From sequence record KY295893.1: a stretch of DNA of 44,931 nucleotides; one strand, 5' to 3'. This DNA is from Escherichia phage vB_EcoP_D. The notes under the pieces are model-generated. The model was not told where the DNA came from, did not search any database, and saw only the letters and a program-made list of their open reading frames with translations. A program made the position numbers and the translations under genes. How positions within the stretch are numbered: the stretch's first letter is position 1; every line of letters starts with the position of its first letter. Positions 1-32,392 of the stretch are shown piece by piece.

Positions 1-917
1 AGTCCACGAGCCATACCAGCGCGGCGGCGAGCATCCAGTCTAGCCTGATACTCAGCAGCAGCTTTCTTGTCTGTGCCGAAGCGAGAGCTAAGGGTCATCA
101 TCTCACGCAGGTACTGCTCACGCGAGAGTGGGCCGTTGTCTTCTGATGCGGCAGCAGGTGCAGATGGTTCAATCAGGCTTGGCTTGTCATCACCTTGTGC
201 AGCCTTACGGCGGCTCTCCAGTTCACGCACAGCGTATTGCTGAAGGTACTGGTTGCCAGATCCCATCACCGCATTGAATGCCATTAGTTCGTCATCAGAC
301 AGCGCTTCAAGTGCCCACGCCTCAAGACGGGACCACCCTTCTTCACCACCAATTTCCTTAGAAACATCAGAGAAGCGTTGGGTATTAGCTGCTTCCAACT
401 CTTTAGCTGCGTTGGCTTCTTTTAGGAAGAAGGCTTCATTTTGAGCCTTAAGGCCTGACAGGTAAGCATCTACCGCAAACTTGCCAAAAGCATCATACAG
501 TTTCTGCTTGGTTGCATCAGACAGCTCAAACTTGCCATCTTTGGCATAGAGTTCCTTGGCAACCTGCTTAGCATCAATACCTTTCTCTTTAAGGCTATCA
601 GTAACATCCTGTGGTATATCTACTGTTACTTCATAGTCTCCGAAGAAGTATTGCACTTCCTCAGTGTCGGTCGTGGTATCATCTGGCTTAGATTCACCAT
701 TCTCTCCGTCATTGTCTCTCGCTTCTGAAGGTTGTCCAGAAGTTTCTCCTCTGGTGTCTTCAGCAGATTGTGTACTAGCATTGTCATCTTGTACATTAGT
801 GCTAGTATCAGCATGAACATCATTAGTAGTAGCATCAGTTGATACCTCCTTGGTTTCTACCGGATTGTCTTCAGCAATAGGATGAGTGGTTGACGGTTCA
901 GTAAATGAGAAAGACAT
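1..917 (-). CDS. scaffolding protein, 3' end truncated by window start
   Basis: Open minus-strand frame from ATG 917..915 (RBS AAGGAGG, overlaps portal stop as TAATG) to the window edge; acidic ~305-aa product; sits between portal and capsid as T7 gene 9 does. Absent from the ORF track because no stop lies inside the window. Confidence 0.6.
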   Translation of the reverse strand, partial: MSFSFTEPSTTHPIAEDNPVETKEVSTDATTNDVHADTSTNVQDDNASTQSAEDTRGETSGQPSEARDNDGENGESKPDDTTTDTEEVQYFFGDYEVTVDIPQDVTDSLKEKGIDAKQVAKELYAKDGKFELSDATKQKLYDAFGKFAVDAYLSGLKAQNEAFFLKEANAAKELEAANTQRFSDVSKEIGGEEGWSRLEAWALEALSDDELMAFNAVMGSGNQYLQQYAVRELESRRKAAQGDDKPSLIEPSAPAAASEDNGPLSREQYLREMMTLSSRFGTDKKAAAEYQARLDARRRAGMARG

Positions 918-2467
918 TACGCCTCCTTAAGTTCTTGTTGAATTACACCCGGAATGGCCTTAGCCACACCCTCTTCAAGCATCTGTGCTTGCTGTGCTTG
1001 CATCTGCGCTTCCTGTTCTTGCTCCATCTCTTCAGTCGATTTAAGGAATGGCAGTTCAGCAGAGATTTGACCACGTACCCAATCCATGTAATCAGGCCAC
1101 TTCACAGCAGCTAGGACAGGCTCAGGCCATTGCAAAGGCAGTGACATGTACTGAGCGAAGTTTGCCAGCTTATCCAGTTCAGCCATGCGCCCTAATGCTT
1201 CAATGCCTGTGATAATCACAGGGTCAACTAGGTCACTAGTGAATGAATCACCTGCCTCCAGCAGACCCCACATCGCTACTGGCGATTGCATAGTAGTAGC
1301 AAAGAGGGAATATACACCGCCCATGTTCTGCTCAATCTCTAACGCATCTCGCTGGATTTCTACAGCAGTAACACGTTCGGCATCACGGCGTGTCATCGTC
1401 TCCATCATGAATACGACACCGATACGGCGAGTGTACACCTCTAGAACCGCACTAATAGGTGTGAGGTCTGCATACTTACCTAACTGTACAATATGGATGT
1501 CTTCTTCTACACCAGTAACAACCTCACCAGTGCCAGAGTTAACAAAGTGGTCAACATCAGTCTGAGCACCCGGACGAATCAAGTACTTAATATCTGCCAT
1601 CAGTGCAGCACCACGGGCAACTGCTTCAGACAGGAATTGGATAACGAATAAATCACCGGAGTAATCCTCTGCTAAAGGACGACCCCAATCCTCACCATAG
1701 CTTCGCTTCCAAGTTAGCGGGATAAATGGTAGCTTTTCTGATTTGATTTTACTTACCTTACCAACAGGGATATCATCAGCAGATTGCTTGAGTTCCCAAA
1801 AACCCTCACCAAGATACTTAGCATGTGTGTACAGCTTAATGCTGTCATCTTCCTTGCATTTCTTACCTTTCAAGCCCACCTCTACCACAGCACGGGTAGC
1901 GGGGTCAAATGTACGCAAGGACTTTTCTTGCAGTAAGATAATGTCTAACAGGTCGCCATTGGTATCACGGTTAACTACGTAGTGATGCATTGGTATTGCA
2001 CTGATTGCACCTTTGCTCGGCTTGTATAGCATACAGCTGCCAGCAACAATAAGATGCTTGAATGCTTCTACTACAGCAGGCCGGAATTGACGTTGCTCTA
2101 ACTCTTTCATTGCCCGTGTTTCCACTTGAGCAAAGATAGTAGCTAGCTCTGTCTTCTTCAGGCCACGCTGATTAAGAATCTTCTCACCTTGTGCAGTTAG
2201 GTCTACACGGAAGAAGGAGCGCTGTGCAGGGAATAGCACTTGCGCTAGCTTGTTGGCTAGGTGGTTAGTTGCCTGAGCACCTACACCTTGCCATCCGTTC
2301 TGCGAAGTCTCGTTATCACCTTTGTCATTCATCAGATAGGGCAAGGTTAATTTGGAGTAATGCTTCGCCCTATCAAGGAAAGAGCTACGTTTAGTGGAGA
2401 ACTTCTCCCATAGCTTAGGTATCTTAGACCGCTTACCTCCATACTCCAAATCTGTGCTCTGTTTCAT
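917..2467 (-). CDS. portal (head-to-tail connector) protein
   Basis: 516-aa ORF, size and position match T7 gp8-like portals; RBS AAGGTG before ATG; followed directly by the scaffold gene. Confidence 0.85.
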   Translation of the reverse strand: MKQSTDLEYGGKRSKIPKLWEKFSTKRSSFLDRAKHYSKLTLPYLMNDKGDNETSQNGWQGVGAQATNHLANKLAQVLFPAQRSFFRVDLTAQGEKILNQRGLKKTELATIFAQVETRAMKELEQRQFRPAVVEAFKHLIVAGSCMLYKPSKGAISAIPMHHYVVNRDTNGDLLDIILLQEKSLRTFDPATRAVVEVGLKGKKCKEDDSIKLYTHAKYLGEGFWELKQSADDIPVGKVSKIKSEKLPFIPLTWKRSYGEDWGRPLAEDYSGDLFVIQFLSEAVARGAALMADIKYLIRPGAQTDVDHFVNSGTGEVVTGVEEDIHIVQLGKYADLTPISAVLEVYTRRIGVVFMMETMTRRDAERVTAVEIQRDALEIEQNMGGVYSLFATTMQSPVAMWGLLEAGDSFTSDLVDPVIITGIEALGRMAELDKLANFAQYMSLPLQWPEPVLAAVKWPDYMDWVRGQISAELPFLKSTEEMEQEQEAQMQAQQAQMLEEGVAKAIPGVIQQELKEA

Positions 2468-5106: not shown

Positions 5107-5129
5107 TTGTTCTATAGTGTCAACTAAAT
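5107..5129 (-). promoter_or_regulatory. phage RNAP promoter, SP6-type subclass (ATTTAGTTGACACTATAGAACAA)
   Basis: Minus-strand 23-mer matching the SP6 consensus ATTTAGGTGACACTATAGAAGAG at 17 of 18 positions from -17 to +1; predicted +1 G at 5112; intergenic, upstream of 4585..5055. Confidence 0.6.
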
Positions 5130-28350: not shown

Positions 28351-28695
28351 TTACCATCGTGCACATCCCTCTCTTACATCAATGTGGGTGAAATTAGGAT
28401 AAGACCCAATGCCATATTTATTGGGGTAGCGTGCTGTTAGATAGGACCATACACGGTAAGGTGTAATACCTTGTACCTTAATGTCAGCAGCCTTACCAGT
28501 AAGATGCATGGAGTTCTTAGCACCTCCCACATTAGCATTGTGCTTAGCACAGCGGTGTCCAGAAGTAATAACTACAGGAGCACCAAAGTGCTCACGTACA
28601 TCTGTGACTACCTGTAGTAACTCAGCATCTACTGTGGATGTACCGCACCCACAACGGCAAGCGAACTCACGGCGCTTGAAGTGTTTGTTAAGCAT
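28351..28695 (-). CDS. endolysin, peptidase M15 family (L-alanyl-D-glutamate peptidase-like)
   Basis: 114 aa from ATG 28695 (MLNKHF, RBS GAGG); SGHRC...D...H zinc-peptidase signature (VVITSGHRCAKHN, HLTGKAADI, FTHIDV); track start 28764 is GTG. Confidence 0.75.
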   Translation of the reverse strand: MLNKHFKRREFACRCGCGTSTVDAELLQVVTDVREHFGAPVVITSGHRCAKHNANVGGAKNSMHLTGKAADIKVQGITPYRVWSYLTARYPNKYGIGSYPNFTHIDVREGCARW

Positions 28696-28715
28696 TATTG
28701 ACCTCGTCTTTACAA

Positions 28716-29003
28716 TTAAGCCGCAGGTGTTACAGGGTCCGACTCCATAGTAGTTGCATCCCACTTGTCGGTGGGTTCACTCCCACGTGCAATAGCGATG
28801 TACAAGGATTGGTTTGTTTTCTCTACAGCAACCATGGCGCCTTTCTGTTTACCAGAGAGGTGTTTAATGTTGATAGGATGATCTTTCTTCTTAAGGTCTG
28901 CTTCAGCAACAATAGGCAAAGGGATTGCCGTTGCAGTGGTTTGTCCAGTTTTTACTCGAAAAGCCTGACCAGTAACAGTACCTGCGGTTCCATATTTAGA
29001 CAT
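28716..29003 (-). CDS. hypothetical protein, paralog of 29016..29294
   Basis: 95-aa ORF, RBS AGGAGAG; shares SGKQKGAMV...IAIA block with the adjacent gene. Confidence 0.5.
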   Translation of the reverse strand: MSKYGTAGTVTGQAFRVKTGQTTATAIPLPIVAEADLKKKDHPINIKHLSGKQKGAMVAVEKTNQSLYIAIARGSEPTDKWDATTMESDPVTPAA

Positions 29004-29427: not shown

Positions 29428-29450
29428 TCCTTCTATAGTGTCCGGTAATT
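29428..29450 (-). promoter_or_regulatory. phage RNAP promoter, main subclass (AATTACCGGACACTATAGAAGGA)
   Basis: +1 G at 29433; overlaps the terminase stop codon; upstream of the paralog pair and lysis genes. Confidence 0.55.
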
Positions 29451-30180
29451 AATAAGTCCTTGAAATCCTTGCAGAAAGTGTATTTCTGCTTGCCGATTTA
29501 CTCCTGTAATTCTGACCGTATACTCTTTGCTGCATAGCCACGGAAGTGTTGGTTACTCTTCGCTCAGTGCCATAATCTCCATAGAGCATTGCCCTACGGA
29601 GGTGAGGTGTGTTCATAGCTTGGATATAATCGCGCATCTCCTGCGCTCTGAGGCGATTAATCCGTGTAACCTCGTCATAGTCTATCTGAGAAGTTAATTG
29701 CCGTATAGCGCCATACAGCGCGTCTAAGCGGTCATCGTGCCGGAGGCTGTTCTTCTCAATCGTGATGTTCGACATTTGATTGAAAAGGCTGTATGACATG
29801 CGTAGTTCAAGCGGATAGTGCTGTACCGACTCAAAATCAGACTTGACCATCTCTGCGTTGAAGATGAGCCTGTGGGCCGCCATTAGTGGCTCTAGTGTTT
29901 CAATGATACGCAACTCTTTCTGTCCGGTGGCGTAATCTTCCTCCAGAGTCACAGGCCACTCTCGTTCAAAGTATGGCTTTATAACGGCCTCAAACGCGCC
30001 ATGACCAAAGTTCTTTTCAATGAATACCTCTTTAACACCTGCCTGCTTTGCGGCCTGCACAATGCGATTCAGGGACGATTCGCGGTATCCTCCCGGCACA
30101 CCAAAGCACTGATACACATAAATGAATGTGCCGTGCAGGAAGACGATAGCCACACCCGTTTCATCCCCATTCTTACCTCC
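29449..30180 (-). CDS. terminase large subunit, exon 2 (nuclease domain)
   Basis: Encodes GGKNGDETGVAIVFLHG... and a downstream HDDRLDAL acidic motif; in frame with exon 1 after removal of 30181..30926; spliced product ~633 aa. Confidence 0.75.
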   Translation of the reverse strand, partial: GGKNGDETGVAIVFLHGTFIYVYQCFGVPGGYRESSLNRIVQAAKQAGVKEVFIEKNFGHGAFEAVIKPYFEREWPVTLEEDYATGQKELRIIETLEPLMAAHRLIFNAEMVKSDFESVQHYPLELRMSYSLFNQMSNITIEKNSLRHDDRLDALYGAIRQLTSQIDYDEVTRINRLRAQEMRDYIQAMNTPHLRRAMLYGDYGTERRVTNTSVAMQQRVYGQNYRSKSASRNTLSARISRTY

Positions 30181-30706
30181 CGGTTTGAACGTGACGTGCG
30201 AGCCAACCCTTGTGGTGTTTACGTAAACCATGTGCCACCTTACGCATATTCTGAGGTGTTAGGTTGTGCTCTTTACAGAAGTCAGTAATGCAAGTTACAA
30301 GAAACTCTTCACCATCTGGAGAAGTGAATATGTAATCTTTGCCAGTACCTTTGTTGTAAGGTGTCATGCCTTTCTTGAACTCAGTGGCAACAGACAAGTG
30401 CTGTCCTTTCTTGATTTCAGTGGCAATACTTATGCGTTCACCTTTCTCGATGTTACCTGCTTTGCGATAACCACCTTTACCCTTATTCCAACCCATGTTG
30501 TCATGTGGGCGTAGCTTCTCTTCTAGTGCATAACACTCTTCTTTGCTACCAGTGAATAAGATAACGTACTCGCGGCCATCACAAAGACGGCCTGCACACT
30601 TGTGCTCTCTCATACGCTTCTTAATATCGGAGGTTACACCAATATAACCTTGCATTACATCAGTTTCACCAACAACACGAATATGATAAACTTTATGCTC
30701 TGTCAT
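30173..30706 (-). CDS. GIY-YIG homing endonuclease, intron-encoded
   Basis: 177 aa, RBS AAGGGAG; N-terminal KVYHIRVVGETDVMQGYIGVTSDIKKRMREH fits the GIY...YIG...R...E pattern, followed by repeated basic GxxxxxxxIATExKKG segments; stop codon lies 6-8 nt past the predicted 3' splice site. Confidence 0.85.
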   Translation of the reverse strand: MTEHKVYHIRVVGETDVMQGYIGVTSDIKKRMREHKCAGRLCDGREYVILFTGSKEECYALEEKLRPHDNMGWNKGKGGYRKAGNIEKGERISIATEIKKGQHLSVATEFKKGMTPYNKGTGKDYIFTSPDGEEFLVTCITDFCKEHNLTPQNMRKVAHGLRKHHKGWLARHVQTGR

Positions 30707-30926
30707 ATTTAACTCCCTTCAATTGTTACGTTAATTCGCTACTTTAACTTCTACTAGTCACCTAGTAGGTCGGACTATATCTTAGGCTTGCGCCTCCCTC
30801 TGTTTCAGACCGCTTGGCCTTACAGTTAGTCTCTACACGTTCCTGTTATTGCAACAGGCTTCGCTCGGTATTGTCTCAGTGAGAGTTCCACCGAATTAAG
30901 AGGGTTTTACGCTGGCAGAGGTGTTT
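30181..30926 (-). mobile_element. group I intron in the terminase large-subunit gene
   Basis: Intron RNA contains matches to the group I core elements: P-like AAUUCGGUGGAA (30886..30897), Q-like AAUACCGAGC (30863..30872), R-like GUGUAGAGACUAAC (30825..30838), S AAGAUAUAGUCCG (30771..30783). Predicted P1 pairs exon GCUGGU with GCCAGC (30911..30916) with a U.G at the splice site; predicted P10 pairs exon 2 GGAGGU with ACCUCU; last intron base is G. Confidence 0.75.
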
Positions 30927-32096
30927 ACCAGCGGGGTCAATGTACATAATTTTACGGGTGACAGCGCCCCATTCATACGGTCGGGCCACAGGGCGATACA
31001 TAAAGTCTGTAGGCTTATTGCCATACTTCGGTGCATCGCCAATGATGTTAATAGAGTCGTTGCTCCATGTAGGCATCACAGGGACTTCCTCTGTACCGAA
31101 TGAAGTGAAGATGAGGTTGTTCAGGCGTAGCGGATAGCGGTCAGCATCCATCATGCGAGTGTTAAGCATAAACTGAAGCTGGAACTTAGCCGCACCCTGC
31201 GAGATTTCCTTCTCAATCAGCACATCATCATCATACATTTCAGGTGCACAAGGGGCACCACTATTGCCATCCAAGCCATACCCTGAGCGAAGTGCTGGGT
31301 TGTCCTTCATATCCTGCACAATCATAGGTGCAAGGAAGTCGCCATAGCATTGCTCCTGCTCCACTGAGGGATAACGTGCAGTCCAGATACGAACAGAGTA
31401 ACCACGAGCAGGTAGGTTATTGTAGATAGAGTTTACGTTCTGAGGAGTACCAAGGTAGATAATATCACCAAACTGGTTAATAGATTCAAACTCCTTGGTC
31501 AGTTCCTCAAGCAAGGCACGTCCTGCCGCTGTACGAGCATTCTGCATTGACTCAACGTCATCTGCTAGGATGATATCTGCACGCGCACCCTGCATACCTG
31601 CTTCGATTGAGTAACAAGACACAGAAGGCGACTTGTCACTGCCACGTAGGGTGTAATGAATCTCAAATGCCTTAACTGAGGCACGGTCCCCTGCGTAGAT
31701 GTCCGGTAGCATAAACTCAAGAAAGTCTAGGCCACGGAAGATTTTAACTACCCAACCTGCGATTTCCTCTGCTCGCTTGGCGTTTTGGGATACAACCATG
31801 ATACGCTTATGCGGTTCATGAATGATACGGAATACTGTATAGATTGCTGATAGTGTTGTCTTAGCGATACCACGAGGCGCTTCGATGAGGCGATACTTGT
31901 GTCCGTAGAATAGGAACTTCAAGATATCAGCCTGCATACGAATCAGATGAGGGTTGCCTGCAATTAAGTTATGAATAACTGTGTCTGCAAAGAGAAGCAA
32001 ACCTTCCGCTGTGTAAGGAAAGGTCTGCTGTAACTCCTGTAGCATCTCCCATCTGGCAAGAGCCTCCGCTTGTGATTCTCTTGCCTTAGCCATCAA
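30927..32096 (-). CDS. terminase large subunit, exon 1 (ATPase domain)
   Basis: Encodes 390 aa up to ...KIMYIDPAG; track ORF continues 16 codons into the intron to a stop (...KHLCQRKTLLIRWNSH). ATG at 32093 follows an in-frame TTG at 32096. Confidence 0.8.
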
Positions 32097-32392
32097 TCCT
32101 CCTTAGTGAATTGAATAATCTTGCCACTTGATGCCTCTCGGATAGCCTTGAGGCGCTTAGATAGCTTGGACTCCTCCTGCTGTGCAGCGGGTGTAGCGGT
32201 AATACCATTATCAAGAACCCACTTACACATAGCTCCAATGTCTTTACCAGAGACTAAATGCAGTGCTGCATCTGGGTCTTCTTCTATAGTGTCCAGTATT
32301 GCCTGTGCTTTCTTATTAAAGATTTTGGTAATAGCACCATGTAGAATGCCAACCTCGTCTTCCGTAGCTGCATGTTTATTGTGTACGCTCAT
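32093..32392 (-). CDS. candidate terminase small subunit
   Basis: 99 aa from ATG 32392 (MSVHNKHA, strong RBS GGAGGAGGAG); assigned by position immediately upstream of the large subunit (T7 gene 18 position); no sequence motif recognised. Confidence 0.5.
   Translation of the reverse strand: MSVHNKHAATEDEVGILHGAITKIFNKKAQAILDTIEEDPDAALHLVSGKDIGAMCKWVLDNGITATPAAQQEESKLSKRLKAIREASSGKIIQFTKED
32279..32301 (-). promoter_or_regulatory. promoter-like sequence inside the small-terminase gene (CAATACTGGACACTATAGAAGAA)
   Basis: Core identical to main-class promoters, upstream AT-rich part weaker; +1 G at 32284. Confidence 0.4.

Follow-up and report, generated by a model that had tools for sequence, protein, structure and literature searches.

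The terL locus

[quoted passage not shown] The main features of the locus are as follows.

32279..32294, minus strand: match to an SP6-type phage promoter, upstream of terS/terL
30927..32093, minus strand: terL exon 1 (389 codons), encoding the ATPase domain and linker; its last residues are ...YIDPAG and its final codon is GGU
30181..30926, minus strand: group I intron of 746 nt, numbered from nt 1 at 30926 to the terminal omega G, nt 746, at 30181
30713..30719, minus strand: AAGGGAG, resembling a Shine-Dalgarno sequence, six bases before the endonuclease ATG and in a conserved purine-rich block
30173..30706, minus strand: ORF for a predicted homing endonuclease of 177 aa, in the intron's 3' part
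29449..30180, minus strand: terL exon 2, 243 codons plus stop, RNase H-like nuclease domain, beginning GGKNGDETG

A first, sequence-only reading of this DNA had placed the terL pieces at 30927..32096 and 29449..30180, with about 746 nt between them. The second piece and the end of the first stand. The start was corrected from 32096 to 32093, since the ATG at 32093, as used in K1-5 and vB_EcoP_K, is the more likely start codon than the TTG at 32096. Comparison with intron-less alleles fixes the intron boundaries to the single base, and the distance between the pieces is exactly 746 nt (30181..30926). The terL pre-mRNA is probably transcribed from the promoter match at 32279..32294. Nine sites in the window match the consensus of the phage's own promoters; all of them are on the minus strand, and the intron contains none. 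A candidate SP6-type promoter in the P9 hairpin (CUAGGUGACUAGUAGAAG) was rejected on this ground.

The predicted joined terminase

Joining 30927 to 30180 gives a predicted terminase of 632 aa, and the predicted exon junction (30927|30180) reads ...CCCGCUGGU|GGAGGUAAG.... The joined product is identical at 628/632 positions to the uninterrupted K1-5 gp40, and at the same number (628/632) to the uninterrupted TerL of vB_EcoP_K, with a gap-free junction in both alignments. The sequence-only reading had suggested such an alignment to intron-less terminases, and the result agrees with its claim that splicing would fuse ...YIDPAG to a typical nuclease-domain start. The T7 terminase structure 8dgc (8dgc_E) matches residues 48-552 of the joined product in a single stretch (E = 1.9e-82), and phrog_38 spans residues 4-582. 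Exon 2 matches the profile PF22530 (E = 1.1e-32). The insertion point, DPAG|GG, lies within the first strand of the nuclease domain. The reading frame of exon 1 closes 16 codons inside the intron, and no start codon for exon 2 that is conserved among relatives was found.

Splice sites and their pairings

The exon-intron pairings P1 and P10 were located next to the splice sites.

30911..30932, minus strand: P1 hairpin, exon GCUGGU (30932..30927) paired with the internal guide sequence GCCAGC (30916..30911)
30917..30922, minus strand: P10 5' strand, ACCUCU, intron nt 5-10, adjoining the guide sequence and pairing with the start of exon 2
30175..30180, minus strand: P10 3' strand, GGAGGU, the first six bases of exon 2

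The loop of P1 between the exon strand and the guide sequence is AAACACCUCU. The last U of exon 1 (30927) makes a U.G wobble at the 5' splice site, and this wobble is kept in all 16 introns compared at the DPAG|GG site. In these introns the pairings change in step with the exon, U-A to G-C in P1 and A-U to U-A in P10. The exon sequence GCGGGU is paired with GCCCGC or GCUCGC in four lineages (L132, L133, L134 and L136), and P10, which has 6 bp in the window copy, covaries in L130, where the exon-2 sequence GGUGGU pairs with ACCACU. The P1 with its U.G, the P10 and the terminal G named by the sequence-only reading are thus all present, and both helices covary in other lineages. One further contig, L135, with a T7-type DPSGR terminase and a more distant intron, was left out of this comparison because its splice sites could not be placed. 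The third position of exon 2 is A in 15 of the 16 intron-bearing alleles, compared with 1 of 33 distinct intron-less junctions.

The sequence that follows P7 was searched for a P9.0 or other long-range pairing with the final 22 nt of the intron, and none was convincing. The candidate UUGAA (intron 205-209) with UUCAA (738-742) was rejected; it is present in 3 of 10 lineages, but its bases also belong to conserved endonuclease codons and do not covary.

The ribozyme core

A covariance-model search for group I introns, also proposed in the sequence-only reading, matched Rfam RF00028 (Intron_gpI) at 30751..30999 on the minus strand over the full model (1-253), with 61 bits and E = 3.5e-13 against a gathering score of 50 bits. 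The match takes in the core only. The P1 that it implies (30999..30960) was rejected, as it coincides with a hairpin in the exon that relatives do not conserve. A 3' splice site at 30751 was also rejected, since this is merely the end of P9 and would bring stop codons into terL. The structure of the core was drawn by hand, with P7 written as a pseudoknot with P3. Its helices are given below in intron numbering.

30751..30904, minus strand: catalytic core P3-P9, from the covariance model and covariation
P3: 23-28/126-131
P4: 33-37/58-62
P5: 43-46/50-53
P6: 64-65/88-89
P6a: 69-74/80-85
P7: 94,96-100/150-155, with bulged A95
P7.2: 108-111/116-119
P8: 133-135/140-142, with a GCAA loop
P9: 159-165/170-176, with a GUGA loop

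Across 30 related introns, pairing in P3-P9, counted with the P3/P7 pseudoknot, reaches 96.3%, compared with 34-44% when the partners are slid, and both partners have changed in 28 of the 43 core pairs. The covariation score of the core is 0.554, whereas slid controls gave 0.07-0.13 and none of 500 shuffles reached this value. The guanosine-binding pair of P7, G96-C154, just after the bulged A95, is invariant in all 30 sequences, at alignment columns 101/182. Together with the RF00028 score, this covariation confirms the group I core elements that had been recognised by eye. The window copy is without P2. P7.1 and P7.2 are both present in most relatives, VEN included; the window copy and phD2B have lost P7.1 and keep a single hairpin, P7.2 (GGCC/GGUC). 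The intron appears to be of the phage IA type, closest to IA2. A scan of viral contigs found the same core string in 74 of them, with many different insertion sites.

The endonuclease ORF

The ORF in the 3' part of the intron (30706..30173) had been read as a GIY-YIG endonuclease, and fold comparison bears out the GIY-YIG fold (beta-beta-alpha-beta-alpha). The GIY-YIG nuclease domain covers residues ~1-80 and an I-HmuI-like DNA-binding domain residues ~120-177. The window protein misses the cut-off of Pfam PF01541 (21.0 vs 22.6 bits); 15 of 22 endonuclease homologues match this family at E <= 0.01, the best at 5.6e-6. V6, Y7, H8, I9, G20, Y21, G23, R31, H35, E62 and N74 are invariant in 22 endonuclease sequences, and the whole predicted catalytic set (GIY Tyr, YIG Tyr, Arg, His, Glu and Asn) is present. 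The protein is a predicted GIY-YIG homing endonuclease, which would be expected to cleave DNA and support homing. Its Shine-Dalgarno was not sequestered in a fold of 30690..30770 (z = -1.66).

The stop codon of the ORF runs into exon 2, as had been noted earlier: the TAA lies at 30175..30173, and the last 8 nt of the ORF are inside the exon. This arrangement is seen in 15 of 16 endonuclease copies, which read through the terminal G and stop in exon 2. In 14 copies, including that of the window, the stop is formed from the exon-2 codons GGU AAG or GGU AGU. As the endonuclease has no stop inside the intron, its message would be non-stop once the intron is excised. Splicing and endonuclease synthesis might exclude each other on any one RNA molecule, forming a built-in switch, although we consider this unlikely. 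If true, properly terminated endonuclease would be made only from unspliced pre-mRNA, and a ribosome completing the endonuclease would necessarily cover the 3' splice site and P10. Such a switch would split the transcripts between the needs of the phage (terminase) and those of the intron.

Distribution and mobility

The intron is carried by 13 phage records, whereas most Vectrevirus records have none at the identical site; the close relatives vB_EcoP_K, vB_EcoP_B and K1-5 are among those without it. The window copy is 99.9% identical to that of K1E, and the phD2B copy at the same site is 77% identical. In cp4, VR702, PST_H2 and ULIP33, which are Klebsiella and Salmonella phages, the intron is 94.5-98.7% identical and the exons 75-80%. 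Since the identity of the intron lies above that of the exons, the element has spread horizontally, and it has clearly moved between Escherichia, Klebsiella and Salmonella phages.

The intron-bearing vB_EcoP_C and vB_EcoP_R and the intron-less vB_EcoP_B and vB_EcoP_K have the same recorded host strain and neighbouring GenBank accessions. Such pairs of phages with and without the intron are a handy natural system for homing studies.

Proposed mechanism and alternative explanations

With high confidence, the locus is interpreted as a mobile group I intron of phage IA type in terL, carrying a homing endonuclease gene. The observations behind this interpretation are the anatomy, the covariation, the gap-free joined product, the presence/absence polymorphism and the horizontal spread; splicing itself is a prediction from the sequence. 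A literature search found no experimental evidence of splicing, self-splicing or endonuclease activity for the terL intron. In the proposed mechanism, terL would be made as a single pre-mRNA by the phage RNA polymerase, and the first 176 nt of the intron would form the ribozyme core. P1 (GCUGGU with GCCAGC, including the U.G wobble) would offer up the 5' splice site. After guanosine attack, P10 (ACCUCU with GGAGGU) and the terminal G, which lies ~570 nt downstream of the core, would set the 3' splice site. The ligated exons would then give the 632-aa T7-type terminase, while the 177-aa endonuclease would be translated from its own ribosome-binding site. In a mixed infection the endonuclease may cut an intron-less terL, and repair would copy the intron in.

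Insertion of the endonuclease gene could instead have split terL into two separately translated polypeptides that assemble into a working terminase, with the ribozyme-like sequence between them inactive or irrelevant. Genes in pieces have a precedent in Aeromonas phage Aeh1, whose nrdA is split by mobE. All database records give two terminase CDSs and no intron, and the two halves belong to separate PHROGs families. The window also has an ATG in the exon-2 frame, 51 nt before exon 2, with AAGGUGG upstream. However, this ATG is GTG in K1E, cp4, VR702, PST_H2 and P433.1, no such start codon is present in ULIP33, phD2B and VEN, and the exon-2 start is annotated differently from record to record. 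A separate C-terminal piece would miss the first strand of the nuclease domain, because the break lies inside that strand (DPAG|GG). Furthermore, compensatory changes maintain the core, P1 and P10, and an inert spacer would have no reason to show them; separate translation is very improbable. It is hardly conceivable that the intron has decayed and no longer splices, leaving terL a pseudogene; plaque-forming isolates need a terminase, and more than 10 isolates and many metagenomic contigs have the intron conserved and intact, along with both exons and the endonuclease ORF.

The intron could also splice in vivo and yet not be autocatalytic, so that without P2 and P7.1 it needs a host or phage protein or other conditions of the cell. 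The absence of P7.1 from the window copy and phD2B, while VEN and most relatives have it, is consistent with this, as is a 3' splice site ~570 nt from the core with no P9.0 pairing found. Some Bastillevirinae introns splice only in infected cells (PMC11878797). On the other side, the core helices, the bulged A and G-C pair of P7 and the GNRA loops of P8 and P9 are all intact in the terL intron. Self-splicing in vitro is seen in compact phage group I introns whose ORF lies 3' of the core, T4 nrdD/sunY for example, and this also argues against a dependence on other factors, which is unlikely here.

Comparison with known systems

The T4 nrdD (sunY) intron with I-TevII has a compact 5' core, and an ORF fills its 3' part. 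Its 3' splice site lies hundreds of nt from the core and is picked by P10 and the terminal G. The terL intron is similar in its 5' core, ORF-filled 3' part and distant 3' splice site. It differs in host gene and insertion site, and in that its ORF crosses the 3' splice site to end in exon 2; a search for P9.0 in the terL intron gave no pairing. The T4 td intron with I-TevI, a GIY-YIG enzyme, is a further close known system.

The sequence-only reading did not recall an intron in the terminase gene of SP6-like phages, but one had already been proposed. K1E (AM084415) annotates the locus as genes 40A / 40.5 / 40B. Tourasse & Kolstø (2008) listed the K1E large-terminase intron among group I intron matches (PMC2504315), and Nowicki et al. 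(2014) proposed a terL intron for Lelliottia phage phD2B and K1E on the basis of split ORFs and BLAST matches (PMC4246154). The window intron is the same element as those of K1E and phD2B, with the same site and endonuclease, and nothing substantial differs. The terL intron is real but already known, the same element having been proposed for K1E and relatives, and it raises no new question on introns or terminases. No published account of the splice sites, secondary structure, covariation or horizontal-spread figures was found. The chief value of the analysis is in annotation: in 13 records, among them RefSeq K1E and vB_EcoP_C, the locus is given as two "terminase large subunit" genes without an intron, and the junction 30927|30180 and the structure allow a joined CDS and an intron feature.

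In nucleotide sequence, the K1E terminase intron is similar to TMP-IVS1 and TMP-IVS2 of B. cereus-group prophages, which are classed as IA2, and to the SPbeta nrdE and Twort introns (PMC2504315). Those introns sit in different host genes and have different guide sequences. Group I introns in terL also include term-IVS1/2 of B. cereus prophages (PMC2504315) and the TerL intron of the Bastillevirinae phage SIOphi, whose splicing was shown by experiment (PMC11878797). They share with the present element a group I intron in terL, whereas the phages are unrelated and have Gram-positive hosts, and both the insertion sites and the endonucleases differ.

The interrupted terL gene and its product

Two terL pieces with a 177-aa ORF between them, all three on the minus strand, are present in the ORF list. 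The sequence-only reading was right about the two pieces but probably not about the start at 32096, which is a TTG one codon before ATG 32093, the start of the homologues. With 30927 joined to 30180, 632 codons can be read without interruption from ATG 32093.

Features at and around terL
30927..32093, minus strand: terL exon 1
30181..30926, minus strand: intron (nt 1 = 30926)
30173..30706, minus strand: endonuclease ORF, 177 aa, in the 3' part of the intron
29449..30180, minus strand: terL exon 2
32279..32294, minus strand: promoter match directly upstream of terS/terL
29428..29443, minus strand: promoter match directly 3' of the terL stop
28351..28764, minus strand: 137-aa ORF downstream of terL

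The predicted spliced product aligns gap-free with uninterrupted terminases across ...IMYIDPAG^GGKNGDETGVAIV... (^, junction), the fusion that had been proposed, and 628 of its 632 residues are identical to those of K1-5 and vB_EcoP_K, again with a gap-free junction. The DNA flanks are ...GCTGGT^AAACACC...AAACCG^GGAGGT... in the window and ...GC(A/G)GGT^GG(C/T)GGT... in intron-less phages. This comparison fixes the 746-nt insert (30181..30926), and no 1-base shift is possible. The spliced protein matches the solved T7 terminase 8dgc in one continuous stretch over the junction (residues 48–552, E = 1.9e-82). Exon 2 is the Terminase-T7 RNase H-like domain (E = 1.1e-32). This match starts at exon-2 residue 2, profile position 5, which means that the intron interrupts the nuclease domain within its first strand. 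An intein is excluded, since the insert does not stay open in frame.

The ribozyme core

The Rfam group I covariance model matches 30751..30999 (minus strand) with 61 bits against a gathering score of 50 (E = 3.5e-13). The 3' terminus of this match is the end of P9, which is distinct from the 3' splice site. The P1 placed by Rfam (30960..30999, minus strand) was rejected. It is an unrelated hairpin, CGCCC...GGGCG, formed by the exon codons for YRPVARPYEWGAV, and looks like an alignment artefact because this stretch diverges heavily in cp4, KpnP_VR702 and VEN. The secondary structure was instead drawn by hand, with the exon boundaries as a guide and after alignment with diverged copies, those of phD2B (77% identity) and Vibrio phage VEN (78% identity over the core).

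Helices of the window intron (intron nt unless stated)
P1: exon −6..−1 / 11–16
P10: 5–10 / exon 2 +1..+6
P3: 23–28/126–131
P4: 33–37/58–62
P5: 43–46/50–53
P6: 64–65/88–89
P6a: 69–74/80–85
P7: 94,96–100/150–155, A95 bulged
P7.2: 108–111/116–119
P8: 133–135/140–142, GCAA loop
P9: 159–165/170–176, GUGA loop

The structure has no P2, and a convincing P9.0 pairing was looked for and not found. The P7.1 hairpin is missing in the window copy and phD2B and present in VEN and most relatives. The core elements recognized by eye are borne out by an alignment of 30 family introns, in which P7 was coded as a pseudoknot and 3' partners slid by 1–3 columns served as controls. In this alignment, 96.3% of cells are paired (34–44% in the slid controls), 28 of 43 core pairs change on both sides, and the covariation score is 0.554 versus 0.07–0.13. 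None of 500 shuffles reached the observed values. The P7 G–C pair after the bulged base, the guanosine-binding site, is invariant. Introns related to this one are classed as IA2 by Tourasse & Kolstø (PMC2504315), a class that the window intron may share.

Viral contigs were scanned for exact matches to the 20-nt P5'–P4'–P6 string. Of the 74 loci obtained, seven are at the terL site and 67 have other guide sequences and hence other insertion sites; the same ribozyme family therefore resides in many phage genes. In four comparison loci (L025, L027, L060 and L074), several hundred nt of ORF-like sequence are found in the P6 loop rather than 3' of P9, and another (L022) has a shorter insert of ~70 nt there.

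Splice-site pairings and rival readings

Endonuclease homologues led to eight more metagenomic contigs, in each of which the gene is flanked by two terL pieces, one for the N-terminal part and one for the Terminase-T7 RNase H-like domain. Together with the isolates, they bring the introns at the DPAG^GG site to 16. One of the eight contigs, L135 (ena:ERZ27239148:k141_288102), was left out of this count since its splice sites could not be placed. At 627..1600, it has a T7-type (DPSGR) terminase broken near the same place by an insert whose group I-like core is more distant and whose endonuclease (P0022) is 39% identical.

Both proposed splice-site helices covary. In P1, exon GCUGGU pairs with GCCAGC, and the exon strand GCGGGU is met by GCCCGC or GCUCGC elsewhere among the 16 introns. 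In P10, exon-2 GGAGGU/ACCUCU becomes GGUGGU/ACCACU in the L130 copy. All 16 copies have the U·G wobble at the 5' splice site and the terminal G. In the first exon-2 codon, A occupies the third position in 15 of 16 alleles with the intron but in only one of 33 distinct junctions without it, taken from viral contigs, and the complete exon context seen with the intron occurs in none of these 33. Either a need for pairing or co-conversion of the flanks with the intron would fit this bias.

The database annotation implies that the terL halves are translated as two polypeptides, which we regard as very improbable. In the window, an in-frame ATG precedes exon 2 by 51 nt, but other copies have GTG there or no such codon, exon-2 starts differ between annotators, and the exon-1 frame ends 16 codons into the intron. 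Furthermore, P1, P10 and the core are plainly upheld by selection. By analogy with some Bastillevirinae introns, which provide a precedent (PMC11878797), splicing might depend on a cofactor, although we consider this unlikely. The terL group I intron is real and was correctly read.

The intron-encoded endonuclease

The window copy scores below the Pfam cut-offs for both GIY-YIG (21.0 versus 22.6 bits) and I-HmuI NUMOD-like (20.9 versus 27 bits). However, the GIY-YIG label is right, because the catalytic set (VYHI, GYxG, R31, H35, E62, N74) is invariant in the 22-member family alignment and 15 members match PF01541. PF22083 matches 17 members; an I-HmuI-type module is predicted for DNA binding, a detail beyond the original label.

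The first nt of the ORF is intron nt 221, 3' of an AAGGGAG box. As had been noticed, the ORF reads past the terminal G into exon 2 (30173..30181), where its TAA is made from the codons GGU AAG. The stop is inside exon 2 in 15 of 16 copies at the terL site, the sole exception (L134) stopping 7 nt before it. The excised intron would therefore carry an ORF without a stop codon, a non-stop message. This is the least ordinary of our readings, and its relevance is speculative and doubtful.

Mobility

Intron identity to the window is 98.7% in cp4, 95.8% in KpnP_VR702, 95.0% in PST_H2 and 94.5% in K1-ULIP33, with an exon identity of only 75–80%. PST_H2 is a Salmonella phage and the other three are Klebsiella phages. 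The intron is absent from vB_EcoP_K and vB_EcoP_B, very close relatives with the same recorded host strain and neighbouring accessions. Ten of the 45 exon differences from vB_EcoP_K fall at −52..+12 around the insertion site. This cluster is compatible with a co-conversion tract, although the pattern is mosaic across intron-bearing phages.

Locus annotation and surroundings

The 2.9-kb region is 100% identical in vB_EcoP_C (KY295892) and vB_EcoP_R (KY295899) and 99.1% identical in K1E (AM084415), all three being SP6-like podophages that belong to Vectrevirus (Autographiviridae, Molineuxvirinae). The K1E annotation labels gp40A and gp40B putative large terminase subunit and gp40.5 putative homing endonuclease. 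An intron feature is absent from all records examined for the terL locus. Two PHROGs 'terminase large subunit' families each match only one exon: phrog_17672 exon 1 (residues 1-389, 395-position profile) and phrog_15524 exon 2 (residues 379-632 of the spliced protein, 29449..32093). They seem to be products of split annotation in intron-bearing genes.

In the intron-bearing Escherichia phage PhiNW-E1 (PQ476011.1, 193..3526), the match to the 2901-nt query is in two pieces that together extend over 3334 nt; roughly 430 additional nt therefore lie somewhere in the region. Between terS and terL, the intron-less Escherichia phage mutPK1A2 (MG004687, 2249..2679) carries a small ORF and a putative HNH homing endonuclease gene that is free-standing. 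More than one kind of homing endonuclease seems to be drawn to the terminase region.

The window minus strand has nine matches to an SP6-type promoter core (GGACACTATAGAAGGA, with 3 mismatches allowed; chance expectation, 0.34), at 5107, 8703, 9849, 10618, 14353, 15201, 27755, 29428 and 32279. SGHRCAKHNANVGGAKNSMHLTGKAADI occurs in the 137-aa ORF downstream of terL, which by eye looks like a zinc peptidase-type endolysin.

Comparison with known introns

The possible novelty of the terL intron did not hold. Nowicki et al. (2014) proposed an intron here for phD2B and K1E and found this layout otherwise only in K1E among Autographivirinae (PMC4246154), and Tourasse & Kolstø (2008) listed "Enterobacterial phage K1E (large terminase)" as one of the BLASTN matches to IA2 introns (PMC2504315). 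Our literature search, with the K1E genome paper outside its scope, found no published demonstration of splicing for the K1E-type intron. Terminase genes of other phages are established sites of group I introns, and some of these introns have been proven to splice (PMC11878797). The intron is thus already known, and the present additions are incremental: the exact junctions, a structure backed by covariation, covarying splice-site helices, a two-module endonuclease and figures for cross-genus spread.
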